Shown here: positions 20,334 through 49,035 of the stretch, piece by piece | Layout of the letters: each line of letters starts with the position of its first letter | Numbering within the stretch: the stretch's first letter is position 1 | Origin: Escherichia phage LQ5 | Length of the DNA: 64,000 nt | Sequence record: OR677401 | Direction: 5' to 3' (one strand) | Notes under the pieces: generated by a model | Told to the model about the DNA's origin: nothing | The model's database searches: none | The model's input: the letters and a program-made list of their open reading frames with translations, nothing else | Translations under genes and position numbers: made by a program

Positions 20334-21407
20334 ATGCAAGATTTCGGGCATTGGGCGGTATTTGAAGAAGTTGATATTAAAAATTATATTGGATTTGTGT
20401 ATGTAATCACTTTTGAAGATGGCAAAAAATATGTCGGTGCTAAAAAGATTTGGAAACGAATCAAAGCTGCACCTTGCACATTTAAACGTGGTCCTAAAAA
20501 AGGGTTTGAGGAATCTGATTGGAAAACCTATACCTCATCATCCAATGAATTGAACGCAATGATAGAAAAGGGTATAAGTCCAAAAGAATATCTTATTGTA
20601 GGATGGTACCCTACTTGGGGTAAAACTCTTATGGCAGAAATGGAAATGCAATTAGCCAATGATGTTTTACGAGACCCTATGTGGCTCAATAAACAAATTG
20701 GCGGGCATTTCAACCCTAACTGCTTTGACGATTTAACAGAGGATGATATTGCAAGATGGATGGAATTTGATAAAGGGAATGAGCATGTTTCTTGGCCTAT
20801 GATGTATAAAATTGGCCAGAAAACCAAGTACGTTAAACCTGATGAAGTTAGTGAGTATATTAAATCTGGATGGCAATTTGGTCGTTCTAAAATGGAAAAA
20901 CATTCTGTTACCTATAATTGCTCTAAATTTACTATATGGGACTATGAAGAAAACAAGCCGGTGGAAGTAATAAATCAAAACGAATTCGCTCGTAATAATG
21001 ATTTAAGTAGCAACCATTTAACAAGGCTTCTTCAAGGAACCCTCGACCTAATTAAAGACCGATGGGGCCTTCCACCAGATATTGCTCGTCAGCGTTATAA
21101 ATTTCAGGACGTTTCTTCAGGAACAAAATTTTTATCCAATTCCGAGTTAGAAGAATTTTACGGTATGACTCGCGGTCAGGCTAACAAAGCTATTAAAGAT
21201 GGAAGAGCTGTTAAATTAGTAGTCGAAAGCAAAGAAGACCATATTAAAAAACTTGGCTCTATCGAATTGGTAAAAACCGAAAAGACAAAAGTTACGTCTC
21301 AAGTAATGCTTAACAGTTTTAAAGATATAGTTAATCCTATGACTACTGCCGAAAAATCAGAAATGATTGAATGGTTGGAAAGTTATATAACTTATTTGAA
21401 ATCTTAA
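20334..21407 (+). CDS. GIY-YIG-like homing endonuclease (seg-type)
   Basis: N-terminal YIGFVYVITFEDGKKYVGAKK fits the GIY...YIG pattern; AT-rich gene. Confidence 0.5.
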   Translation: MQDFGHWAVFEEVDIKNYIGFVYVITFEDGKKYVGAKKIWKRIKAAPCTFKRGPKKGFEESDWKTYTSSSNELNAMIEKGISPKEYLIVGWYPTWGKTLMAEMEMQLANDVLRDPMWLNKQIGGHFNPNCFDDLTEDDIARWMEFDKGNEHVSWPMMYKIGQKTKYVKPDEVSEYIKSGWQFGRSKMEKHSVTYNCSKFTIWDYEENKPVEVINQNEFARNNDLSSNHLTRLLQGTLDLIKDRWGLPPDIARQRYKFQDVSSGTKFLSNSELEEFYGMTRGQANKAIKDGRAVKLVVESKEDHIKKLGSIELVKTEKTKVTSQVMLNSFKDIVNPMTTAEKSEMIEWLESYITYLKS

Positions 21408-24040: not shown

Positions 24041-24300
24041 AACCCATATCCACCACCCTCGCCTACGAAGGTCTCGGATTTTTCTTAATAGATAACTGTA
24101 TGGATGTTGAGTTTGTTTGTGGTGAGACTTCTTTAGTATGGAAGTCTCATATTTCCAAATACAACCATCGTGAATATCCAAGTCTTTTTAAAGAATTTTG
24201 TGGATATATGTCTGAACATGGATGTACTGATACAATTTCTTATTCCGAGTTCACACAAATCCTTGAAACCGTATTTCAGGCTTATTGCTTACTCCGTTGA
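24037..24300 (+). CDS. hypothetical protein
   Basis: ATGA coupling. Confidence 0.55.
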   Translation: MKPISTTLAYEGLGFFLIDNCMDVEFVCGETSLVWKSHISKYNHREYPSLFKEFCGYMSEHGCTDTISYSEFTQILETVFQAYCLLR

Positions 24301-24335
24301 TGCTTTAAAAGGGTCTTCAAATACTATGATATAAT
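24301..24335 (+). promoter_or_regulatory. possible MotA-dependent middle promoter (TGCTTTA box plus -10)
   Basis: TGCTTTA at 24301-24307, TACTAT/TATAAT downstream; upstream of gene 55. Confidence 0.3.
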
Positions 24336-24366
24336 AGACCTATGATTTGAGTTATCTGAGGTAACA

Positions 24367-24924
24367 ATGACCGAAATTAAACTGACTAAAAATAACTATG
24401 TAAATAATAAGGAGCTTCTGAAAGCTATCACCCAATGGAAAACAGAACTCAGAGAAAATACCGATCCTAATAAAATAGTTCGCCAGAACGACGTTATCGG
24501 CTTGGCTATTATGCTCATTGCTGAAGGACTAAGTAAACGTTTCAACTTCTCAGGATATACCCAATCTTGGAAGCAAGAAATGATTGCTGATGGAATCGAA
24601 GCTTCGATTAAAGGTCTTCACAACTTCGACGAAACAAAATACGACAACCCACATGCATATATCACTATGGCTTGTTTTAATGCCTTCGTTCAGCGTATCA
24701 AAAAAGAACGTAAAGAAATGGCAAAGAAATATAGCTACTTCGTCCATAATGTCTATGACAGTAATGATGACGACATGGTAGGTATTGCAGATGAAACCTT
24801 TATCCAAGATATCTACGACAAAATGACTCAGTATGAAACCTCTTTAACTAAAGCACCAGGGTCTGATAAGAGTGCCGAACCTAAAGTTGGTGAATTGGAT
24901 TTTTTATATGGAACATCAGATTAA
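24367..24924 (+). CDS. 55: late-transcription sigma factor gp55
   Basis: 185 aa, long collinear match to T4 gp55 as recalled ([55 protein letters not shown]). Confidence 0.95.
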
Positions 24925-25138
24925 TATCACTCCACTTTTAGATGGAATGGAAGACTTCGAAGCACTCCCTTATTTTATTAAATTGATATTACGGGATGTT
25001 AAAGGCCTTCCTATTGATATTGACCCACTTAACGTCAGGAATATTGAATTCACTTCTCCTGATAATAACGTAGATTATCGTTATCATGTTGAGAACGCTA
25101 ATTTCTACTTCACTATTGAATTGACTCCAAAGGATTAA
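24908..25138 (+). CDS. hypothetical protein
   Basis: ATG 24908 overlapping gene 55 end. Confidence 0.5.
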
Positions 25139-25139
25139 T

Positions 25140-25451
25140 ATGCAAAGCCATGACATTTCTCAATTGACCGATGAGCAAATTGAAGAAGCCCAGCAACGTT
25201 TAGAAGAGCACAATATTAAAGAAGCTAATTCTCAAGCGGCTAAGATTCTTAAGAAGAATGCTCGTGAAATCCGTCGTTTAAATCTCCATGCCCAAGGCGC
25301 TGTACTTGAAAACAACTTTGAAGCATATAAGTACGCTTTAATTAAATTACGCGGTATTTACCGTCAACCTGTTACTGATGAACTTGTTCAATTGATGTGG
25401 GAATCTACCCGCAAACAAATTTGGGAAATCGTCAATGGCCCTAGTAAATAA
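25140..25451 (+). CDS. hypothetical protein
   Basis: ORF 103 aa. Confidence 0.55.
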   Translation: MQSHDISQLTDEQIEEAQQRLEEHNIKEANSQAAKILKKNAREIRRLNLHAQGAVLENNFEAYKYALIKLRGIYRQPVTDELVQLMWESTRKQIWEIVNGPSK

Positions 25452-25635
25452 ACCCTTTAAACGGCTTCTTATTGGGGCCGCCTTTAGACTTCGCTCATAC
25501 AGTAATATCTGTATTAAGCAGTCCGAAACCGAATATAAAATGGTCGGCCAGTATTCCGATGGAATTTTTCGGATTGAGCCTGTAGCCAAGGTTTGGGTAG
25601 ATTCTCATCAACTTAAGAAATGGTGGCAACGATGA
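25435..25635 (+). CDS. hypothetical basic protein
   Basis: ORF 66 aa overlapping previous end. Confidence 0.35.
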   Translation: MALVNKPFKRLLIGAAFRLRSYSNICIKQSETEYKMVGQYSDGIFRIEPVAKVWVDSHQLKKWWQR

Positions 25636-25693
25636 TAACGTGGACAGGTGGCTAATGAAAGACGAATACGAAAAAGTTTAAGAGGTTGTATGA

Positions 25694-25867
25694 ATGACGA
25701 ATTCGATGGATTTTGATAAGATTAAATCTGACAAAAACGAGATGATACTTCAATTTGAAGCCGCTCGTATTAAAGCAGAAAATGAAGGTACTATTACCTA
25801 TAAGCCTATCAAGTTCAGGTCTAATCACGAACCTCTGTACGGTGTATTAGTTGGTAAAGGAGCTTAG
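25694..25867 (+). CDS. hypothetical small protein (57 aa)
   Basis: ends in terminator stem. Confidence 0.4.
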   Translation: MTNSMDFDKIKSDKNEMILQFEAARIKAENEGTITYKPIKFRSNHEPLYGVLVGKGA

Positions 25868-25878
25868 GCTCCTTTTTT
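25857..25878 (+). terminator. rho-independent terminator
   Basis: ggagc-ttag-gctcc then T6. Confidence 0.8.
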
Positions 25879-25907
25879 GCTTTCTAAACGGATGATAAAA
25901 TAAATCT

Positions 25908-26762
25908 ATGAAATACATTACATACCTGACAATATATTCCGGGACTAAGCTTCCACCGTTTTATATAGGGTCCACTACTTTAGAGAAGCATTTAAAAGGA
26001 TACCATGGGAGCGTCCTTTCTAAAGCATATAAAGAAATCTATAACAAGGAGCTTTTAGAGCATCCTGAATTATTTGACTCATGTATTGTAAGTGAACACC
26101 CTACAAGAGAAGAGGCTTTAGAAGCTGAAAGAATGTACCAGTTAAGAACCGATGCGGCCCAAAATCCTCTATTCTTTAATATGGCTGTCGCAGCTCCTAA
26201 AGGATTCTTTGGGCTTTCGCTACCTAAAGAGCAACACCCTCTTTACGGCTCTCATAATGCTAAAGGATATATTCATTCCTATAATCCTGTTACATTAGAA
26301 CAAACCTTTGCACCTACAGTCCCCGAAGGATACGTAGAAGGTCGTTCTCCTAATTATAAAGCGTCTAGTCATAATAAGGGTAAGAAGTGGTATAACAATG
26401 GCGTTGATAAAGGATTATTTGTAGAAGGAAAACAACCTGAATCTTGGGTCCTTGGCAGTTTTCTAACCGATGAACATAAGAAAAACTTGAAAAAGACCGA
26501 TGGGATATATGACCCTGATATTCAAAAAGAATTAAAAGAGCTTTGGATTTCTACTGGATTTTTGCCACCGTATAAATTTAGAGAAATAGCTTTAGCTAAA
26601 GGTTTTATGGATGGTAATTATCACAATTTGGTTTATAAAATTTTTAAGCCTACAGTTACAATTACTAGACCTAAGAAAATCTGGGCTAATGACGGCATAA
26701 AAAGCTTTATGATTTCTGAGATAGAATTTAATAGTGAAATACATTATAAAGGTAGATTATGA
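25908..26762 (+). CDS. GIY-YIG-like putative homing endonuclease
   Basis: YITYLTIYSGTKLPPFYIGST N-terminus; AT-rich; sits where T4 carries alpha-glucosyltransferase. Confidence 0.4.
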   Translation: MKYITYLTIYSGTKLPPFYIGSTTLEKHLKGYHGSVLSKAYKEIYNKELLEHPELFDSCIVSEHPTREEALEAERMYQLRTDAAQNPLFFNMAVAAPKGFFGLSLPKEQHPLYGSHNAKGYIHSYNPVTLEQTFAPTVPEGYVEGRSPNYKASSHNKGKKWYNNGVDKGLFVEGKQPESWVLGSFLTDEHKKNLKKTDGIYDPDIQKELKELWISTGFLPPYKFREIALAKGFMDGNYHNLVYKIFKPTVTITRPKKIWANDGIKSFMISEIEFNSEIHYKGRL

Positions 26763-27781
26763 AAATTTTGAATATAGGTGATTTGCATATCGGAGTAAAA
26801 GCCGATGACCCTTGGATTCAGGAAATCCAGCTTAACGGTATTAAACAGGCTGTAGAATATTCTAAAGCAAACAATATTGATACATGGATTCAATATGGTG
26901 ATTGGTTCGATGTACGCAAGGCTATCACCCATAAATGTATGGAATTTAATCGCGGTCTGGTGGAAATTATCAGCGATGCAGGTATTAAAGTCCATGTTAT
27001 AATTGGTAACCATGATGCAACGTTTAAAAATAGCATAACTCCTAATGCGGTTTCTGAACTTCTTACTCAGTATGAAAATTTTACTGTTTACGAGAAACCT
27101 ACTACGGTTAACTTTGATGGCACCGAAATTGATTTGATTCCATGGATGTGTGAAGAAAACACGACCGATATCATGGACCATATCAAAAATACCACAGCAG
27201 ATTTCTGTATAGGTCACTGGGAATTAAATGGTTTCTATTTCTATAAAGGAATGAAATCTCATGGTTTAGAACCTGATTTCCTTAAGAAGTATAAGCAAGT
27301 ATGGTCTGGCCACTTCCACACCATTTCTGATGCGGCAAACGTTAAGTATATTGGTACGCCCTGGACCCTAACTGCGGGTGATGAGAACGACCCTCGTGGC
27401 TTCTGGATTTTCGATACAGAAACCCATAAAATGGATTTCATCATCAATGAAACTTGTTGGCACCGTAAGATTCATTACCCGAATGCGACTATCGATTACA
27501 AAGATTTTACAAATATTGCGGTTCGTGTTATAGTCGATAAAATTGATGACGGGCTTACTAAGTTCGAATCAGAGCTTGAAAAGGTTGTCCACTCTTTGCG
27601 TATTGTGTCTAAGGTAGATAACAGTGTTGATATCGATGATTCTGAAGAGGAAGATGAAGTTAAGTCCCTCTTGGATATGATGTATGATTATATCGATGCC
27701 CTCCCTGATGGCCACACTGAAGACGATGTTAAAGCCCTTAAGACTATGGCCGCACAACTTTATAATGAGGTTACACGATGA
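26759..27781 (+). CDS. 47: recombination endonuclease subunit gp47 (Mre11-like)
   Basis: phosphoesterase motifs GDLHIG, GDWFD, GNHD; collinear with T4 gp47. Confidence 0.95.
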   Translation: MKILNIGDLHIGVKADDPWIQEIQLNGIKQAVEYSKANNIDTWIQYGDWFDVRKAITHKCMEFNRGLVEIISDAGIKVHVIIGNHDATFKNSITPNAVSELLTQYENFTVYEKPTTVNFDGTEIDLIPWMCEENTTDIMDHIKNTTADFCIGHWELNGFYFYKGMKSHGLEPDFLKKYKQVWSGHFHTISDAANVKYIGTPWTLTAGDENDPRGFWIFDTETHKMDFIINETCWHRKIHYPNATIDYKDFTNIAVRVIVDKIDDGLTKFESELEKVVHSLRIVSKVDNSVDIDDSEEEDEVKSLLDMMYDYIDALPDGHTEDDVKALKTMAAQLYNEVTR

Positions 27782-28041
27782 CTTTAGATGAATTCAAAAA
27801 ATCAGGCCTTGAACTAGAACACGACTGCATCGTTATTGATGACGATAACCAAACGAATATCATTAAGTTCTGGTTTGAAGCCGTGAGCACTCGCGATACC
27901 AACGAGCTTATTAAAGTTTATGTTGCTACTGATTGGGCTGTGGAATTTAGCTTTAATGTAATGGTAGATGATACTCCAGAAACATTAATTCATATGGCTG
28001 AATCATGCATCAAGGATGCTTATAATGATGAAAATGTATAA
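27778..28041 (+). CDS. hypothetical protein
   Basis: ATGA coupling. Confidence 0.55.
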   Translation: MTLDEFKKSGLELEHDCIVIDDDNQTNIIKFWFEAVSTRDTNELIKVYVATDWAVEFSFNVMVDDTPETLIHMAESCIKDAYNDENV

Positions 28042-30607: not shown

Positions 30608-31306
30608 ATGAAATTCTCTAAAGAAACTCTGAACATTCTGAAAAACTTCTCCAGTATTAACCCAGGTATCATGCTTAAGCCTGGTAACACTATTCTAACT
30701 CGTTCAGTAACGGGTGCAAGTTATGGTGAAGCTACTGTAAGCGATACCTTTGATATCGAAGCCGCAATCTATGATTTGAACGGCTTCTTAAGTATTCTGT
30801 CATTGGTATCTGATAGTGCTGAAGTTTCGGTAAGTGAAGACCAAACCACCTTAATTATTAAAGACCAACGTTCAACTATTAAATGGCCTATTGCCGACCC
30901 AAGTACAATTGCATTCCCAAGCAAAGCTATTCCATTCCCGGTGGCTGAAGTTATTTTTGACCTTAAAGCCGAAGATTACCAACAGTTGATGCGTGTGTCC
31001 TCTGGATTGAGTATTGATACATTTGCTATCACTGTAGACAACGGTAAAATTGTAATCAATGGCTACAAACAAGTTGATGATAAGGACCTGGCACGTCCAT
31101 TGTATTCCTTAGTGGTTGCAGACCATGATGGTCCTGAATTCAAATTCATTATCAACAAAACCAATATGAAAATGATGCCTGCTGATTACCATGTATTGCT
31201 ATGGGCTCGTGGTGAAGGTCAGGATGCTCGTTTCGCAGCCAAGTTTGAAGGTTCACAAGCTTCTTATGTATTGGCTATGGAAGCAGGCTCAAGCCACTCG
31301 TTCTAA
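30608..31306 (+). CDS. 45: sliding clamp gp45
   Basis: collinear with T4 gp45 N-terminus as recalled (LKNF..IN.GIMLK.G..I.TR.V.G..Y.EA..SD..D...AIYDLNGFL.ILSLV). Confidence 0.95.
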   Translation: MKFSKETLNILKNFSSINPGIMLKPGNTILTRSVTGASYGEATVSDTFDIEAAIYDLNGFLSILSLVSDSAEVSVSEDQTTLIIKDQRSTIKWPIADPSTIAFPSKAIPFPVAEVIFDLKAEDYQQLMRVSSGLSIDTFAITVDNGKIVINGYKQVDDKDLARPLYSLVVADHDGPEFKFIINKTNMKMMPADYHVLLWARGEGQDARFAAKFEGSQASYVLAMEAGSSHSF

Positions 31307-31872
31307 TGTACATTTGCTATCATAATACAATAACAAATACCAAAACTAAGGATGTCTACCATTATTTCGGTAGACACCGTGTTACTCCTGAAGAATATTA
31401 TGGTACTGGTAAATTTGTTAAGAAATGCAAACGAGAAAATGCTATAACTCCTGGTGTTTGGGAGTTTAGTATTGAGGTTGTCCACAAAGCGGATACATTT
31501 AAAGAAGCCAAACTTATTGAAGAGGCACTTGTTAAAGAAGGTATTGCCAAGTATGGTTCACGTTGTGTTAATAAAGCTCCCGGTGGTCCGGGTGGTGTAG
31601 ATTTCCACAGTGCTGAATCTAAACGTAAGATGTCTATCAGCCGAACCGGAAAATCAAGAACATTTTCCGAAAGCCATAAGCTTAATTGCTCTAAATGGCA
31701 ACGCTCTGAAATATGGCAGAATTATGAAGAGCTCCGTAAGATTTGGATAGAACTTGGTATGCCTAAAAAGGGTAGATTTAGTACGCTTTTACAAAATTAT
31801 GGATATAATTATTCTGCAAACGAATTGAATAAAATTGTTAAACATTTTAATGAGGAAAATAATAATGAGTAA
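31306..31872 (+). CDS. degenerate GIY-YIG/seg-like homing endonuclease-like protein
   Basis: YICYHNTITNTKTKDVYHYFG N-terminus parallels the 25908 gene; C-terminal HSAESKRKMSISRTGKSRTFSESHK resembles DNA-binding repeats of phage homing endonucleases; inserted between genes 45 and 44. Confidence 0.4.
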   Translation: MYICYHNTITNTKTKDVYHYFGRHRVTPEEYYGTGKFVKKCKRENAITPGVWEFSIEVVHKADTFKEAKLIEEALVKEGIAKYGSRCVNKAPGGPGGVDFHSAESKRKMSISRTGKSRTFSESHKLNCSKWQRSEIWQNYEELRKIWIELGMPKKGRFSTLLQNYGYNYSANELNKIVKHFNEENNNE

Positions 31873-32842: not shown

Positions 32843-33405
32843 GTCTTTTTGATGATGACGTCGAACTGAACGAACATGAAGTTGCTTGGAAATCACGTAA
32901 TGACGCTGCAATTCAAGCCTTGGCCGATTCATTTAAAGAAAAGGCTGAAAACGAACTGTTCGCTATTATGAACGATATCACGTATGGTAAGAACCAACGT
33001 AACCTGGCTCAATCGGAAAACTATAATCAATTTTGGCTCGATAATAGTTTGAGCCAACATGTGGATTGCATTATGCAAGCTGCAATGGTTAACTGTTTGA
33101 AACTTGATGACCAAAGTCATTTCAACTATCTTTTACACGCAGTTCCTAAGGGTAAGAGATTTGGTAAATGGGCTAAGGCCCGTGATGATGAAGTTAGTGT
33201 AGTTTTTATTACTCGTTTATTGATGAAATACCATTCAATTAATAATGATGACGCTTATCGTTATCTCGAGACTTATAAAATTAAAGGACATCTTCCAGCG
33301 GTTCTTAAGAAGATGAAAGGGCTGGTTACTGACGAGTTCCTGAAATCCGTAACCAAAAATGTTAAAGAACAAAAAGACTTGAAAAAGAAAGCATTGGAAT
33401 GGTAA
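32833..33405 (+). CDS. 62: clamp loader small subunit gp62
   Basis: position and size (190 aa) between gene 44 and regA. Confidence 0.8.
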   Translation: MAISLFDDDVELNEHEVAWKSRNDAAIQALADSFKEKAENELFAIMNDITYGKNQRNLAQSENYNQFWLDNSLSQHVDCIMQAAMVNCLKLDDQSHFNYLLHAVPKGKRFGKWAKARDDEVSVVFITRLLMKYHSINNDDAYRYLETYKIKGHLPAVLKKMKGLVTDEFLKSVTKNVKEQKDLKKKALEW

Positions 33406-33411
33406 ATTAAA

Positions 33412-33774
33412 ATGATTGAAATTACTCTGAAACAACCTGAAGACTTCTTGAAAGTGAAAGAGACCCTAACTCGTATGGGTATCGCTAATAATAAAGAAAA
33501 GAAACTATATCAATCCTGCCACATTCTGCAAAAGCAAGGGCTATATTATATCGTCCACTTTAAAGAGATGTTACGTATGGATGGCCGCCAAGTTGATATC
33601 GATGGTGAAGACTATCAACGTCGAGATTCAATTGCCCAGCTTCTTAAGGAGTGGGGACTGATTGATATCGTAGACGACTCTGAGCTGTTCGAAATCACTA
33701 ATAATTTCCGTGTCATTTCCTTTAAGCAGAAAAATGACTGGGAACTACTGTCTAAATACACAATCGGTAATTAA
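33412..33774 (+). CDS. regA: translational repressor RegA
   Basis: 120 aa, position immediately upstream of gene 43, matches T4 RegA as recalled. Confidence 0.9.
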   Translation: MIEITLKQPEDFLKVKETLTRMGIANNKEKKLYQSCHILQKQGLYYIVHFKEMLRMDGRQVDIDGEDYQRRDSIAQLLKEWGLIDIVDDSELFEITNNFRVISFKQKNDWELLSKYTIGN

Positions 33775-37014: not shown

Positions 37015-37515
37015 ATGAAAAAGTTAATTATCGCAATGAGTATGCTCCTATCAGGTTGTGCGGTCCAATATGGTGATGCAGTTTCGGCTGATGAAGTTGG
37101 TAAAGCTCGTATCGCAGCTGAACAGAAACAATTCGATGGCGAAATGAAATTCCGTGCAGGTTCTGGACTTGTGTACACCCGAGCCAATAATCAATGTGGT
37201 AATAACTGTGCAAAATATGCTCAAAGGGAAATCGAATTCCAACGTGAACAAGAGTCTAAGCGTGAAGCGGTACTAGCCAAACACCAGGCAGAAATGAAGC
37301 GTCAAGATGATTTGTACAAAAAGCAGAAACTGTATGCGATGTGCGTAAACCATATCAATCTACAGATTTCCATCCACGAGGCTCGTTATTACGAAATGCT
37401 CGAAACCGAGAGCTTCGGTAAAGCTCGTGATTATAAGAAACAAATCGATAAGCTCAAGACCAAAGCACCGGCGGCAATAAAACAGTGTATTGAAATCGGT
37501 AAAGATAAGATTTAA
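37015..37515 (+). CDS. lipoprotein
   Basis: lipobox-like LLSGC after signal MKKLIIAMSM. Confidence 0.6.
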   Translation: MKKLIIAMSMLLSGCAVQYGDAVSADEVGKARIAAEQKQFDGEMKFRAGSGLVYTRANNQCGNNCAKYAQREIEFQREQESKREAVLAKHQAEMKRQDDLYKKQKLYAMCVNHINLQISIHEARYYEMLETESFGKARDYKKQIDKLKTKAPAAIKQCIEIGKDKI

Positions 37516-37575
37516 GCAATACCAATTTATTAAAAATAGTGTATAATGTACCTACATTCACTTGAGGAACAGATA

Positions 37576-39249
37576 ATGAAAAAGGTTGTTATTTTAGGCG
37601 CGGGTCTTGGCTCACGGTTGTATCCAATTACCAACGAAATCCCGAAGGTACTGGTTAACTACAAACAACATACTGTATTAAAACATTTGTATGATTTGTA
37701 TAGTAATCAATCAGATGAAATTATTCTGGTTATTCACAGCAAATTTAACGACCTCGTTAAAGGCTATATTAAATCCATTAACATGATTAATAGTGATAAG
37801 CCCAAATTCACTATTCGTAACGTTGATGTTGCCAATGGTTCGGCTCATGCTATCGATTGCATTGCCGAAGATATCATTGGGCACAATGTCTTGTTTAACT
37901 GGTGTGATATTATTCCTGAAGGTCATAAAGTTGAGTGGGATAACGACTACTGTTATACCTATGGGACTGACTGTCGTTTTACATTTGAAGAACCGTACTT
38001 GCGTGAAATTGGTACCGGTGGTGGTGTGGTTGGTTTGTATCAGGTTGCTAATTGGACAGGCTTCAACCGTTCTAATTATGGCGAAGACCTTGCTGATAAC
38101 CTGGATTCGATGGTCCATTTGACCGAACGTAAGCTGGACTTTGTAGTTGATGTCGGTGACAAATTGAAACTGGCTAAGGCCCATGAAGATTCTGAAATTA
38201 ACCGTGAATTTAATAAATTAGAGTTCACTGAGAATCTAGCTATTAAAGTACCTACAAACGAATTAGGTAAAGAAATCCAATCTAAAGAAATCAATTGGTA
38301 CAATTCTATTGATTCTGAATTCGTTCCTAGCATTGTAGACTTTGCTCCAGGTGAATTCATTAAAATGGAACGTATCTTTGGTCGAACCATGGCAGATGCC
38401 TACCGGTTTATGTCTAAAGAAACTAAAGTCCTAATGGTTTATAAGGTTATTAGTGCATTACGTTCGTTCGGTGGAACTATCGATAATCCGTCCGATGAGC
38501 AATGGTATTCTGATGTTAAGAAAGAAGTATTGGACAAGGTCCTTATTCGTAATGCTTCTATTGCCGGATTGATTGAAGGCTTTGCTCCACAGGGTATTAC
38601 CCATGTTAACGACTTCAAGGTAGGCGACCCAGAAAAACTTCTTCGTCACGCCTTAGAAATTCTGTCTGAACATAAAGAACCGTACCAACTTATTCATGGC
38701 GACCCGCACTACAGTAATATTATGTTGTCGGACGAAGGTAATATTAAAATCATCGACCCACGTGGTTATTTTGGTAATAGTTCTAAAGGCCCTGCGATTT
38801 ATGATGAAGCTAAGGTGCTTTATTCTATCGATGGTTATGACAAATTTAACTCTGACCCTCTATGGGGCGGATTAACTCGTAACGGAACTCGTGTATTCGT
38901 TGATATTGAAAAGGTTATGCCTTTAGATGATATTCCGATGTGTACATTTAAGCACAAGCTCTGGATTGCCGTTATTTGGATGGCATTGGCAGGTTACTTT
39001 AAAAATAACCCTCTGAAAGCTCTGGGCGCTTATTACAATGGGCTATATCAACTGAGTGTGCTGCTGAAGCGGCATCCTCGTAAGCGTAAGCTTATCACAG
39101 GTGAATTCGTTGATGAAGTTCGCGACCCTATCACGGCTCAAATTATCACTCGTTGTCCTGATAAGTGGGTTTTGCTTGACCAAGAAACTGGTGTAAAATA
39201 TAAACCTACAGGTTCTACCGAACTCCACAAACAATGGAAGAAAATTTAA
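37576..39249 (+). CDS. bifunctional nucleotidyltransferase / kinase (predicted sugar-1-phosphate nucleotidyltransferase fused to APH/choline-kinase-like kinase)
   Basis: N-terminus ILGAGLGSRLYPITNEIPKVL matches the NTP-transferase glycine loop; C-terminus LIHGDPHYSNIML ... IIDPRGY matches the HGD..N / D-x-x-G kinase catalytic and metal loops. Confidence 0.65.
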   Translation: MKKVVILGAGLGSRLYPITNEIPKVLVNYKQHTVLKHLYDLYSNQSDEIILVIHSKFNDLVKGYIKSINMINSDKPKFTIRNVDVANGSAHAIDCIAEDIIGHNVLFNWCDIIPEGHKVEWDNDYCYTYGTDCRFTFEEPYLREIGTGGGVVGLYQVANWTGFNRSNYGEDLADNLDSMVHLTERKLDFVVDVGDKLKLAKAHEDSEINREFNKLEFTENLAIKVPTNELGKEIQSKEINWYNSIDSEFVPSIVDFAPGEFIKMERIFGRTMADAYRFMSKETKVLMVYKVISALRSFGGTIDNPSDEQWYSDVKKEVLDKVLIRNASIAGLIEGFAPQGITHVNDFKVGDPEKLLRHALEILSEHKEPYQLIHGDPHYSNIMLSDEGNIKIIDPRGYFGNSSKGPAIYDEAKVLYSIDGYDKFNSDPLWGGLTRNGTRVFVDIEKVMPLDDIPMCTFKHKLWIAVIWMALAGYFKNNPLKALGAYYNGLYQLSVLLKRHPRKRKLITGEFVDEVRDPITAQIITRCPDKWVLLDQETGVKYKPTGSTELHKQWKKI

Positions 39250-39608
39250 TGCATCTGTGTTTTGATATCGATAATACCATTACTCACTGGCAAGATGACC
39301 GTGATTACGAAAACTTTAAACCGGACACCGAAATGGTGTCCATGATTAATAAGCTTTATGATGAAGGGTACGAGATTACCTTGTTCACTGCCCGTGGTAT
39401 GACTTCATGCGGCCCGGGTCGAATCTTGGTTGAAGTAGTTCCTGCATTAGTTAAGAACCTTGAAAAGATTGGATTGAAATATCACAATCTGCTTACACAT
39501 AAGCCGAGTTATACTTTTATCATCGATGACCGAGCAATCCGTCCTGACCACTTTAAAGAAATGGTTCGTGAAGGAACTCTTGAAACCTATAAGGCATATC
39601 ATCCGTGA
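39234..39608 (+). CDS. HAD-superfamily phosphatase
   Basis: motif I CFDIDNTIT (DxDxT), motif IV FIIDD; alternative start at 39249. Confidence 0.6.
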   Translation: MEENLMHLCFDIDNTITHWQDDRDYENFKPDTEMVSMINKLYDEGYEITLFTARGMTSCGPGRILVEVVPALVKNLEKIGLKYHNLLTHKPSYTFIIDDRAIRPDHFKEMVREGTLETYKAYHP

Positions 39609-40141
39609 AACCAAAAATCATTGTTATCGACGGCCCGGATAATTCCGGGAAGTCTACTTTAATTGAATCACTTTTATCTGATAAGAAATATCGTCTTATC
39701 GATTTCCCTAAAAAGATTAACGGCAAATGCATTTCATTAGGGACTGATAATGACAAGGCTTTAGTCGAGACGTTGTATAAGTTTTTAGACCCTAATTTTG
39801 TCTACATCTTAGACCGTGGGTATCCTAGTAATATTGTTTACTCTGGATTCCTTCGTGGTGAAATGGACCCTTATGTAGAATTAGCAGATTGGATTGATTT
39901 CAAAAAAGAATTCAATATCATTGAGATTATTTTAACCCGTAATCCATTAGATGAAGACTTTGAAGATGACCTTATTAAATTAACCAAAGATGAGTTCAAC
40001 CTAACTATCCAGCAATATGAAACATGTTTTGAAAACGTGTTTAAAATCTTAAATCACGACGGCCATAATAACTTGCTTAACGTCGATATGGTAGAATTAA
40101 AACGTCTGAATGAATATATTGAAAATAAGGTGAATAAATGA
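39605..40141 (+). CDS. P-loop (thymidylate-kinase-like) nucleotide kinase
   Basis: IVIDGPDNSGKSTL Walker A; LDRGY resembles the Tmk DRY motif. Confidence 0.6.
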   Translation: MKPKIIVIDGPDNSGKSTLIESLLSDKKYRLIDFPKKINGKCISLGTDNDKALVETLYKFLDPNFVYILDRGYPSNIVYSGFLRGEMDPYVELADWIDFKKEFNIIEIILTRNPLDEDFEDDLIKLTKDEFNLTIQQYETCFENVFKILNHDGHNNLLNVDMVELKRLNEYIENKVNK

Positions 40142-40836
40142 AACACATTACCGCTGTTAGTTTTGAAAACGCGTTTAAGCAAATGAACGAAGAAATCCTG
40201 GAAGCTCCACAGTTTGCAGTTGATTCTCGTATCGGCCGTTGTTATGAAATTGGTTCTGCTTCGGTAGAAGTACTGGATGCAAGCACCTATAAATTCACCG
40301 ACCCTCGTATTAATCGTATCAACTATGATTATGCCGAATCCTTTTGGAAGTTTATGATTTCTGGTGGTACTGACGCTGCTGAAGCATTTAAGGAATATCC
40401 TAATGTTGCTAAGTTCATTGATAAGCCGAAAAGTGACGTATTGCCTGCAAACTTCAACACTTTCTATGGACCTCGAATTGTGGCCCAACTCCCGGCCCTA
40501 CTTAAAGAGCTTAAAGAGAAGCCTAACTCAAGACGAGTTGTGTTCCAAATTCTCCAAGAACAAGACCAGGCCCTCCTTGATTCTGACGAATCCTTAGAAT
40601 ACCCATGTACCGATTCGGTGACATATTATATTCGTGATGGACGTCTGTATGCACATACTCATATGCGTTCACAGAACTGTGCTATCGTTATGCAGCTGGA
40701 TTTCTATCTGCAGGGTAAACTGATGGCCTTTATTGCTGAACAGTGTGGTGTTGGTCTGGGTACGTATTCCCATACTATGGTTAGTGCACACGTATTTGAA
40801 CGTGATTTTGACTACGTTCGAGGATTCCTGAAATGA
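40138..40836 (+). CDS. 42: thymidylate-synthase-family pyrimidine hydroxymethylase (dCMP hydroxymethylase-like, gp42 slot)
   Basis: catalytic EYPCTDS cysteine; MRSQNCAIVMQLD aligns by eye with T4 gp42 MRSNDVVFGFRND, Asp at the TS Asn specificity position. Confidence 0.65.
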   Translation: MKHITAVSFENAFKQMNEEILEAPQFAVDSRIGRCYEIGSASVEVLDASTYKFTDPRINRINYDYAESFWKFMISGGTDAAEAFKEYPNVAKFIDKPKSDVLPANFNTFYGPRIVAQLPALLKELKEKPNSRRVVFQILQEQDQALLDSDESLEYPCTDSVTYYIRDGRLYAHTHMRSQNCAIVMQLDFYLQGKLMAFIAEQCGVGLGTYSHTMVSAHVFERDFDYVRGFLK

Positions 40837-41726
40837 GTTTGTTTATCGTTCCTATTTTCAGTATGCGTAGTTACGAAACAGGTGAATATGCCGTCCTTAA
40901 GGACGGTAATTTTCAACTCCATTTAAACCGTGCTTGCCCAGGTGATTATCTGGCTTATCCTAGAAATTCGAGCGATATCAAAGAATGCATTGAATTATTT
41001 CCTGAACTGAATTTTGTACCGCTTTGGTATAAAGAAAATGCTTATGAAACTCGTAAACATTTTTGGTCTGAAAACGAGTTCGTTGTTGATTCGTTAATCG
41101 AATACTATGACTGCTCAGGATTGGTAACCGATATCACAGGTTATGATGGCACTCAGACTGTACAATTCAACTTTAACATTACAATGGACCCTGAAGTTCC
41201 TCGTTATTATATCGACGAGTTTATTGATACCGACGTGTCCTCAGTTGAACGTTCGATTTATACCACAGTCCTGAATCAATGTCAGAAAGACGTCCTGGTG
41301 TCACGAGGTGCGTCCTCTGATAAGATTTTTGTAGACCAAAAGGTAATTAATCCGGCAGTAATTGAGCGTTACTCTGAAGGCCTAGCGCCTATTAAAATTG
41401 ATGGTATTTTCCACCCATTCCGTATTTCGGATAAGTGTTATCAATTCGAAAGAGTTGTAGACCAAGCTGCGGCTGAAGGTGCTCGTCTTTATATCACCGA
41501 CCCGAATGATTCATTTAAGCGTGAAGACTATCGTCCTGATGTAGAGATTATTAAATTCAAACCGAGTAAGGTTGAATATTATCAGATTCTGAAATCAAGA
41601 CCTCATATCATTTATCATGAGAATCCCGGTTTAGTATTCCATCCTGGTCTGGCTGAATTCATTTATTTCGGTGCCCATATCCATTCTGAGCACGAAATGC
41701 CAAGTTATGAGGACGTGGTCCTTTAA
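40833..41726 (+). CDS. hypothetical protein in the beta-glucosyltransferase slot (candidate DNA sugar transferase)
   Basis: 297-aa ORF ATGA-coupled to hydroxymethylase; no recognisable T4 beta-gt similarity. Confidence 0.35.
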   Translation: MSLFIVPIFSMRSYETGEYAVLKDGNFQLHLNRACPGDYLAYPRNSSDIKECIELFPELNFVPLWYKENAYETRKHFWSENEFVVDSLIEYYDCSGLVTDITGYDGTQTVQFNFNITMDPEVPRYYIDEFIDTDVSSVERSIYTTVLNQCQKDVLVSRGASSDKIFVDQKVINPAVIERYSEGLAPIKIDGIFHPFRISDKCYQFERVVDQAAAEGARLYITDPNDSFKREDYRPDVEIIKFKPSKVEYYQILKSRPHIIYHENPGLVFHPGLAEFIYFGAHIHSEHEMPSYEDVVL

Positions 41727-48378: not shown

Positions 48379-49035
48379 ATGAATTACGAAAAAATATACC
48401 AGGAATTAATATCTAAAGGAAAATTAAGAGGTTCTAAGCGGTCTTTATCATATTATACGGAAGAACACCATGTTATACCTAGATGTATGAATGGTTCTGA
48501 TGATAAAAACAATTTAGTTGCTTTATTGCCAAGAGAACACTTTGTAGCTCATAGGCTTTTAACAAAAATATATCCCGAAGTAAAAGGTCTACATTATGCT
48601 GTTAATTTAATGAGATATAATAAAGGAGTTAAATTAACTAGTAGAACTATAGCCACGTTAAGAGAAAATAACGCTAAAGCATTTTCAGGAAAAAATAACC
48701 CGATGTTTGGTAAACCTTCCTGGATTAGAGGGATGAAAACTCCTGAAGAAACTAAAGCCAAAATGCGCCTGGCTCATAAAGATAAAATTATATCTGATGA
48801 AGCCAAGGCCAATATGAGTAAAGCTAGAAAAGGAAGATTTAGTGGTAAAGATTCCCCTAGATATGGTTTACCGAATCCTAGGCGTGGAGAAATATGGAAT
48901 AGTTACGATATGCTTTACGAATTATGGGTTTACAATAATAAACCTAAACGCACCAAATTTAATAAAATAGCTGTTGATAATGGATATCCTGATATTTGTT
49001 ATCGACGAATGATAGAAAACTTTAATAGGAAATAA
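48379..49035 (+). CDS. HNH homing endonuclease with C-terminal DNA-binding repeats
   Basis: EEHHVIPRCMNGSDDKNNLVALLPREHFVAHRL HNH core; repeats NNPMFGK, TPEETKAKM, SDEAKANMSKARKG; AT-rich. Confidence 0.8.
   Translation: MNYEKIYQELISKGKLRGSKRSLSYYTEEHHVIPRCMNGSDDKNNLVALLPREHFVAHRLLTKIYPEVKGLHYAVNLMRYNKGVKLTSRTIATLRENNAKAFSGKNNPMFGKPSWIRGMKTPEETKAKMRLAHKDKIISDEAKANMSKARKGRFSGKDSPRYGLPNPRRGEIWNSYDMLYELWVYNNKPKRTKFNKIAVDNGYPDICYRRMIENFNRK

Follow-up and report, generated by a model that had tools for sequence, protein, structure and literature searches.

Described systems

In the T4 record the genes from 55 to 47 stand in the order 55, a-gt.5, a-gt.4, a-gt.3, a-gt.2, mobB, a-gt, 47.1 and 47, with mobB, an HNH-type gene, lying between a-gt.2 and the alpha-glucosyltransferase gene (alpha-gt) (PMC2988022, Table 1). 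T4 SegA, whose gene sits between uvsX and beta-gt, is listed as an active homing endonuclease (PMC2988022, Table 1), and I-TevI is encoded by the intron of T4 td. In RB69, a-gt.2 is found directly before gene 47, and alpha-gt, an endonuclease gene and 47.1 are all absent from that place. Here we describe the corresponding interval in Escherichia phage LQ5 (sequence record OR677401), within a stretch of 64,000 nucleotides (nt) which was analysed as a whole ("the window", to which coordinates refer unless another genome is named). In this interval an open reading frame (ORF) of 284 amino acids (aa), ORF284, immediately precedes gene 47.

We found that the interval has, in all probability, the ordinary T4-type layout of a Dhakavirus (55, a-gt.5 to a-gt.2, terminator, 47), a lineage in which alpha-gt never occurs, with one mobile insert. 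The insert, ORF284, is very likely a free-standing GIY-YIG homing endonuclease gene of the SegA type, adapted to the site upstream of gene 47; it stands where 47.1, a small gene, would otherwise be, and not in the place of alpha-gt. As mobB is found in nearly the same neighbourhood in T4, the interval between genes 55 and 47 is a recurrent landing place for such genes; mobB itself belongs to a different catalytic family and has no sequence similarity to ORF284, and its homologue in the window is located elsewhere (48379-48870). The gene and its predicted parts are as follows:

25908 to 26762, + strand: ORF284, predicted free-standing SegA-like GIY-YIG homing endonuclease gene, long form, 284 aa (PHROG matches, SegA profile match, AlphaFold2 model); its stop codon overlaps the gene 47 start (ATGA)
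25908 to 26207, + strand: GIY-YIG nuclease domain, residues 1-100
26268 to 26759, + strand: predicted DNA-binding region, residues 121-284, with three beta-hairpin "W-x-N-x-G ... G-R/K" modules and a helix bundle
26469 to 26654, + strand: four-helix Myb/homeodomain-like bundle, residues 188-249, part of the DNA-binding region

Identity and predicted structure of ORF284

ORF284 matched two PHROG families, phrog_10820 (E 2e-83) and phrog_314, annotated "homing endonuclease" (E 7e-19). A database search returned 263 relatives, and the family alignment was made from 39 diverse ones. The first ~100 residues were strongly conserved across these 39, with Y6, T8, Y10, G12, P16, Y19, I20, G21, Y32, G34, S38, E48, F56, A70, E74 and N91 invariant. 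Sub-threshold Pfam GIY-YIG matches were found in 16 of the 39 relatives (best E 4.9e-4), SegE_GIY-YIG matches in 4 and NUMOD3 modules in 20. When the family profile was compared to T4 SegA, hhalign returned a probability of 95.1% (E 3e-8) over 172 columns, an alignment which spans the YIG strand, an unusual G-Y-x-G-S motif, the Glu helix, the Asn motif and a C-terminal helical "GFP..Y" domain.

The AlphaFold2 model of ORF284 produced from the family alignment had a mean predicted local distance difference test score (pLDDT) of 86.6 and contains the three-stranded sheet flanked by helices that characterises the GIY-YIG fold. In a Foldseek search of the PDB the three best matches were all to the I-TevI catalytic domain (probability 0.97-1.0), followed by noise, and in structure comparison the modelled fold resembles I-TevI, UvrC and other GIY-YIG nucleases. 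The tyrosines of the motif are in place, with Y6 and Y10 in strand 1 and Y19-I20-G21 in strand 2, and the equivalents of I-TevI E75 and N90 (E74 and N91) lie in the helix and loop of the model that match those of I-TevI. The preliminary description of this DNA had noticed a GIY-YIG-like N-terminus, which is borne out by the SegA profile match and the I-TevI-like fold. These two results carry the argument, rather than the direct hhalign comparison of the family to I-TevI, because the latter gave a probability of only 9%.

RefSeq names members of this family "HNH endonuclease". We rejected this label, which PHROG 10820 also bears, as ORF284 has no HNH motif and its predicted fold is that of GIY-YIG.

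SegA and ORF284 are both free-standing, both adjoin a conserved recombination gene and both have a low GC content. They show no pairwise similarity by BLAST, ORF284 is inserted upstream of gene 47 instead of between uvsX and beta-gt, and SegA has NUMOD3-like repeats where ORF284 has its three beta-hairpin W-x-N-x-G modules. ORF284 itself was not matched by NUMOD3 (Pfam PF07460), in place of which it has these modules and the Myb-like bundle. With I-TevI, ORF284 shares a predicted two-part design in which a nuclease domain is joined by a flexible linker to an extended DNA-binding domain with a terminal helical module. Unlike I-TevI, it is not intron-encoded and has no zinc finger, and the helix which bears R27 and H31 in I-TevI is ~10 residues longer there than in ORF284, where no Arg is conserved.

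Judged by these matches, ORF284 is a further SegA-like homing endonuclease gene of a familiar phage type. It should be noted that several results pull the other way. The match of ORF284 to Pfam PF01541 (GIY-YIG) reached 15.4 bits (E 0.023), under the gathering cut-off of 22.6. Sequence searches against solved structures (PDB chains), whether started from ORF284 alone or from the family profile, returned only noise (e.g. troponin T and a designed repeat protein). There is no invariant Arg after the YIG strand, and the position of I-TevI R27 is occupied by K27/H28 in ORF284 and by K, R or N in the family. No recognisable Shine-Dalgarno sequence precedes the ORF284 ATG, which is only 6 nt from a -10-like hexamer; this suggests that translation is weak, and expression may be very low. 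Weak translation is usual for homing endonuclease genes. NCBIfam returned no match for ORF284.

The conserved GIY strand starts at residue 3, so the ATG at 25908 is taken as the true start of ORF284, and the internal start annotated in Escherichia phage KIT01 is wrong: there the endonuclease gene (3109-3963 of the locus extract) is annotated 28 codons too late.

Alleles at the a-gt.2/47 junction

By megablast of positions 24300-27800, the nearest relatives of the window belong to the genus Dhakavirus (the JS98/IME08/Bp7 group) of the T4-type phages. KIT01 was the top match, at 97.4% across the full 3.5 kb, and its positions 1-63063 are colinear with the whole window in reverse orientation.

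Within Dhakavirus at least five alleles were found at the a-gt.2/47 junction, and ORF284 is present or absent among close relatives. The commonest is the 47.1 allele (63 records by megablast with the WG01 allele, including JS98, JS10 and SP18). The long form is found in KIT01, SHP1 and this window; its specific 3' half was found outside the window in KIT01, SHP1 and ecom005 only, and the ecom005 copy has a 99-nt in-frame deletion in the helical domain. IME08, QL01, NC-G, IME540 and two more phages have an intact short form of 205 aa, which has its first ~164 codons in common with the long form and differs from it in the 3' end. A 65-nt spacer, which we refer to as the scar, is found in Bp7, PSD9, E33 and ABTNLS3, with the same 31-nt junction in all four, and AnYang has a different spacer of 57 nt.

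The scar can be aligned to the window by means of two direct repeats:

25909 to 25920, + strand: left 12-nt direct repeat TGAAATACATTA, codons 1 to 5 of ORF284 (alignment with the Bp7 deletion allele)
26735 to 26746, + strand: right 12-nt direct repeat TGAAATACATTA (alignment with the Bp7 deletion allele)

Removal of the 826 nt between these repeats from the window gives exactly the Bp7-type scar. Because the left repeat is the conserved start of the endonuclease itself (MKYI) and the right repeat is part of its conserved last module, the Bp7-type spacer is a deletion scar and not a virgin site. We considered this spacer as the ancestral empty site and rejected it on three grounds. The spacer still has the endonuclease start codon and first four codons, which are kept in homologues at other loci; it still has the last eight codons, which are part of a conserved protein module; and the gene 47 block that accompanies it is one seen elsewhere with the long form alone. 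The scar also retains the last ~25 nt of ORF284, including AAAGGTAG:

26748 to 26755, + strand: Shine-Dalgarno-like AAAGGTAG, inferred to serve gene 47, within the last ORF284 codons and kept in the scar

Within a single genus the locus displays the life cycle of a homing endonuclease gene: 47.1 as the uninvaded allele, the gene in its intact state, a copy with an internal deletion, a short form with a swapped domain, and a scar left by clean deletion.

The 3' end of the IME08 short form (3540-3730 of the locus extract) was 85.6% identical to that of Klebsiella Marfavirus phages EI and HMGUkp2, while the flanking genes of Dhakavirus and Marfavirus are ~65-70% identical, which suggests that the DNA-binding end of the short form was swapped between genera. 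In IME08 this intact 205-aa gene (3109-3726 of the locus extract) is unannotated, and gp47 is over-extended by 27 codons.

A diverged block at the 5' end of gene 47

The DNA next to ORF284 differs among these alleles:

26759 to 27158, + strand: diverged 5' block of gene 47, linked to the long endonuclease gene; a candidate co-conversion tract which carries the motif I variant GDLHIG

Compared to WG01 and IME08, the window was 96-100% identical in the left flank, dropped to 55-83% per 100 nt over the first 400 nt of gene 47, and returned to 92-99% in the next 600 nt, the rest of the gene. Across 13 genomes, the first 400 nt form two haplogroups which are ~70% identical to each other, whereas the other 623 nt are 94-99% identical. 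Group A consists of exactly the long-form and scar genomes. Of 1022 phage records in which gene 47 was matched, just 7 phages, all with the long form or the scar, had the group-A block at ≥ 95% identity, and the next best match was 73%. The sharp boundary of this candidate tract falls inside an essential recombination gene.

It looks like the endonuclease gene entered together with the adjoining gene 47 sequence, and that the block is a co-conversion tract. The linkage could also stem from a single ordinary recombination event that imported gene and block together, and the linked genomes are few (7 plus the window) and related. A donor of the block was not found, as no phage record outside the group exceeded 73% identity. 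Its nearest outside relative is a metagenomic contig, L027, which carries a 73%-identical long form and is 83-88% identical to the group-A block over the first 200 nt; it is the closest sequence found, and not a donor.

The phosphoesterase motif I of gp47 follows the same division. The non-consensus GDLHIG or GDWHFG was found in every long-form or scar genome (26759-26800 and homologues), and in 8 of 8 gene 47 copies with a linked long form, while T4 and the short-form and 47.1 genomes have GDWHLG. This suggests that the target of the long form may overlap the motif I codons of gene 47. In RB69, where this place is free of an endonuclease gene, the motif is also non-consensus (GDFHIG), so the correlation is not universal.

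T4 and WG01 47.1 (1723-1866 of the WG01 locus extract; a small membrane protein) share an identical stretch of 24 nt, ATTTCAATAATTTTATTTTGCATT, although 47.1 is 76% identical overall between the two and the adjoining DNA ~65-70%. This stretch could be a conserved signal or an endonuclease target. The comparison of the alleles yields a concrete candidate target, the 47.1/gene 47 motif I region.

Selection and proposed mechanism

Between the ORF284 alleles of the window, KIT01 and SHP1 we counted 20-31 synonymous against 3-8 non-synonymous differences, giving a ratio of non-synonymous to synonymous substitution rates (dN/dS) of 0.04-0.07, close to the 0.01-0.02 of gene 47. The ORF284 protein is under purifying selection, and on these values we rejected the gene as a pseudogene. 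We consider it very improbable that ORF284 is the inactive relic of a homing endonuclease gene in decay. The sub-threshold Pfam score, the poor ribosome-binding site, and the in-frame deletion of ecom005 together with the full deletion scars of other relatives all fit such decay. Set against them, the window, KIT01 and SHP1 all have an uninterrupted reading frame, the dN/dS is near that of the essential gene 47, every family-invariant residue is retained, and the model is of high pLDDT.

Strong constraint is also what would be expected had ORF284 lost homing and been domesticated, either as an exclusion nuclease against rival phages or host DNA or as a DNA-binding regulator of gene 47, since such a low dN/dS is not required of a purely selfish gene at fixation. 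The lack of a clearly identifiable catalytic Arg and the position of the gene 47 translation signals in the ORF284 3' end point in the same direction. We nevertheless think domestication unlikely. The gene is absent from most of the genus, and its presence or absence within the genus, with deletion and scar alleles, means that it is dispensable; linkage to a foreign flanking block is a classic signature of homing; and T4 SegA, which in the hhalign alignment deviates likewise at the canonical catalytic Arg, is listed as active (PMC2988022, Table 1).

The fold, the family kinship, the purifying selection, the association with the gene 47 site in several lineages, the presence/absence and decay alleles, and the linkage to the diverged block are shown by the data; that the protein is a nuclease, which site it targets and that it homes are what we infer. 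The C-terminal hairpin repeats and Myb-like bundle would recognise an extended, asymmetric site close to 47.1 or to the first gene 47 codons in a co-infecting relative without the gene, and the tethered N-terminal GIY-YIG domain would cut the DNA of that relative. Recombinational repair from the endonuclease-bearing genome would then copy the gene along with ~400 nt of the gene 47 5' end. As the copied block is ~30% different, it would be resistant to cutting.

A more specific version of this mechanism is one we put forward tentatively and consider rather doubtful. The long form may recognise the DNA encoding motif I (G-D-W-H-L-G, codons 7-12) and, by repeated homing, may have pushed resistant GDLHIG or GDWHFG codons and a foreign 400-nt block into gene 47 in at least four T4-like lineages, despite an active site without the canonical Arg. 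Gene 47 encodes the Mre11/SbcD-like nuclease on which double-strand-break repair, and hence homing, depends.

Layout of the interval and its relation to alpha-gt

The remaining genes of the interval are:

24367 to 24924, + strand: gene 55 (late sigma factor), left anchor; 79% aa identity to T4 gp55 over 185 aa, with which the KIT01, Bp7 and IME08 annotations agree
24908 to 25138, + strand: a-gt.5 orthologue, 76 aa (blastp to T4 a-gt.5 E 4e-17; Pfam DUF5491 E 2.7e-14; phrog_1169)
25140 to 25451, + strand: a-gt.4 orthologue, 103 aa (blastp to T4 a-gt.4 E 8e-24; Pfam DUF2654 E 4e-23)
25435 to 25635, + strand: a-gt.3 orthologue, 66 aa (blastp to T4 a-gt.3 E 1.4e-16; phrog_1648 E 4e-28)
25694 to 25867, + strand: a-gt.2 orthologue, 57 aa (blastp to T4 a-gt.2 E 7e-21; Pfam DUF5486 E 2e-19)
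26759 to 27781, + strand: gene 47 (SbcD/Mre11-like recombination nuclease subunit), right anchor; 70% aa identity to T4 gp47; Pfam Metallophos E 1e-9

The four small ORFs, the terminator and the 284-aa ORF were all found where the preliminary description had placed them, between gene 55 and gene 47. It had also placed alpha-gt in this interval of T4, correctly, and had missed mobB and 47.1, which are there too. Its reading of the small ORFs as a replacement for alpha-gt did not survive comparison, as they are orthologues of T4 a-gt.5, a-gt.4, a-gt.3 and a-gt.2 in the same order as in T4, and are annotated likewise in KIT01, Bp7 and IME08. Relative to T4, only mobB, a-gt and 47.1 are missing from the interval in the window.

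Members of the ORF284 family were also found beside gene 47 in other phages. Tequatrovirus vB_EcoM_G9062 has the order 55, a-gt.5 to a-gt.2, terminator, alpha-glucosyltransferase, terminator, a 207-aa homologue of ORF284, gene 47; the homologue is 66% identical to ORF284 and overlaps gene 47, with alpha-gt intact upstream. In Klebsiella Marfavirus EI, where alpha-gt is missing, the start of gene 47 is again overlapped by a homologue, of 205 aa. Long forms with 59-73% identity were also found in four divergent metagenomic T4-like contigs, in each of which the gene is located between a-gt.2 and gene 47 with the same 4-nt overlap as in the window. From these gene orders, the endonuclease gene and alpha-gt are independent of each other, because G9062 has both and RB69 has neither at this place. 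The same comparison removes the GIY-YIG gene as a substitute for alpha-gt, most Dhakaviruses having 47.1 there.

T4 a-gt gave no credible tblastn match in the interval, the window or the complete genome of KIT01, the closest relative, and T4 b-gt gave none in the window or the KIT01 genome. The absence of alpha-gt, as first described, therefore stands, with the part of this genome beyond the 64-kb window covered by proxy through KIT01. A weak match to a-gt at 39375-39482 (E 0.019, 36 aa) was rejected: it is in frame within an ORF for a HAD phosphatase (TIGR01689) and reflects generic Rossmann-like similarity. That JS98-type phages lack glucosyltransferases was noted in 2010 (PMC2993671).

At 37546-41726 the window contains homologues of the RB69 arabosyl-5-hydroxycytosine cluster, which it shares with RB69/Mosigvirus along with the absence of alpha-gt, and differs from RB69 in having an endonuclease gene at the a-gt.2/47 spot, where RB69 has neither this nor 47.1. 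The matches are to the gp52:53 nucleotidyltransferase/kinase (41-44%), the gp51 phosphatase (62%), the gp45 kinase (38%), gp48 (79%, against only 25% to T4 gp42) and the putative arabinosyltransferase gp46:47 (64-69%). RB69 gp48 has been shown experimentally to be a 5-hydroxy-dCMP synthase, and Dhakaviruses are among the groups listed as sharing the synteny of the RB69 cluster (PMC13326640). No homologue of RB69 gp3 (a second arabinosyltransferase), gp55 (arabinose-5-phosphate isomerase) or gp50 was found in the window or the KIT01 genome; with such a reduced cluster the phage might add one arabinose only and depend on an isomerase of the host. An unassigned ORF of 166 aa (37015-37515) is found at the place of the RB69 isomerase gene.

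It is highly probable that alpha-gt is missing because this lineage uses an RB69-like chemistry (5-hydroxycytosine plus arabinose) and not glucosyl-hydroxymethylcytosine, independently of ORF284. The suggestion that the absence of alpha-gt fits an alternative modification chemistry was reasonable and already known, and for DNA modification nothing new is added beyond the match of this genome to the published RB69-like scheme. That the small ORFs and the GIY-YIG gene took the alpha-gt slot during a switch of modification chemistry would account for the missing alpha-gt and the alternative cluster in one step, and is scarcely credible: the small ORFs adjoin alpha-gt in T4, the endonuclease family coexists with alpha-gt in G9062, RB69 and most Dhakaviruses have neither alpha-gt nor ORF284, and no glycosyltransferase fold or motif was seen in ORF284 by Foldseek and structure comparison. 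We regard this reading as refuted by the G9062 and RB69 arrangements. For annotation, the lesson is that loss of synteny is not the same as replacement.

Expression signals

Two signals lie between a-gt.2 and ORF284:

25856 to 25875, + strand: intrinsic-terminator-like hairpin and T-run, AAAGGAGC-TTAG-GCTCCTTT, with an 8-bp stem and a TTAG loop which contains the a-gt.2 stop codon (terminator scan)
25878 to 25901, + strand: middle-promoter-like element, TGCTTTC, 11 nt, TAAAAT, ending 6 nt before the ORF284 ATG (read from the sequence)

The extended terminator fold has an energy of -14.7 kcal/mol (z = -2.75 against shuffled sequences). An equivalent terminator is annotated after a-gt.2 in G9062, and it is conserved across all Dhakavirus alleles. 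The element at 25878-25901 presumably resembles the MotA-box/-10 consensus of T4. The same TGCTTTC-N11-TAAAAT precedes 47.1 in WG01 and the spacer in AnYang. Because both signals are found in all alleles, including those with 47.1, the terminator and promoter-like element are native to the locus and not part of the endonuclease gene.

Composition and other endonuclease-like genes

We compared the composition of ORF284 to that of the 71 + strand ORFs in the window which start with ATG and encode at least 100 aa. ORF284 has a GC content of 0.356 and a GC content at third codon positions (GC3) of 0.277, against means of 0.396 (standard deviation (sd) 0.022) and 0.349 (sd 0.046), and ranks fourth lowest in GC of the 71. 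The AT-richness ascribed earlier to 25908-26762 therefore holds, modestly, and the composition of the ORF looks foreign. The three ORFs with lower GC are also homing-endonuclease-like, so that these three and ORF284 are the four lowest-GC ORFs of the window.

The three are a SegE-type GIY-YIG ORF at 20334-21407 (Pfam E 5e-34), a 188-aa NUMOD3-like ORF between genes 45 and 44 (31306-31872), and the ORF with HNH and NUMOD3 at 48379-49035, which is 42% identical to T4 MobB. None of them is found at these places in KIT01. JS98 and JS10 have been reported to be without homing endonuclease genes (PMC2993671). A mob-like endonuclease gene that separates 45.2 from gene 46 in KIT01 (32846-33562 of KIT01) is absent from the window around 29919. 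The content of endonuclease genes varies at several loci among genomes which are ~95% identical.

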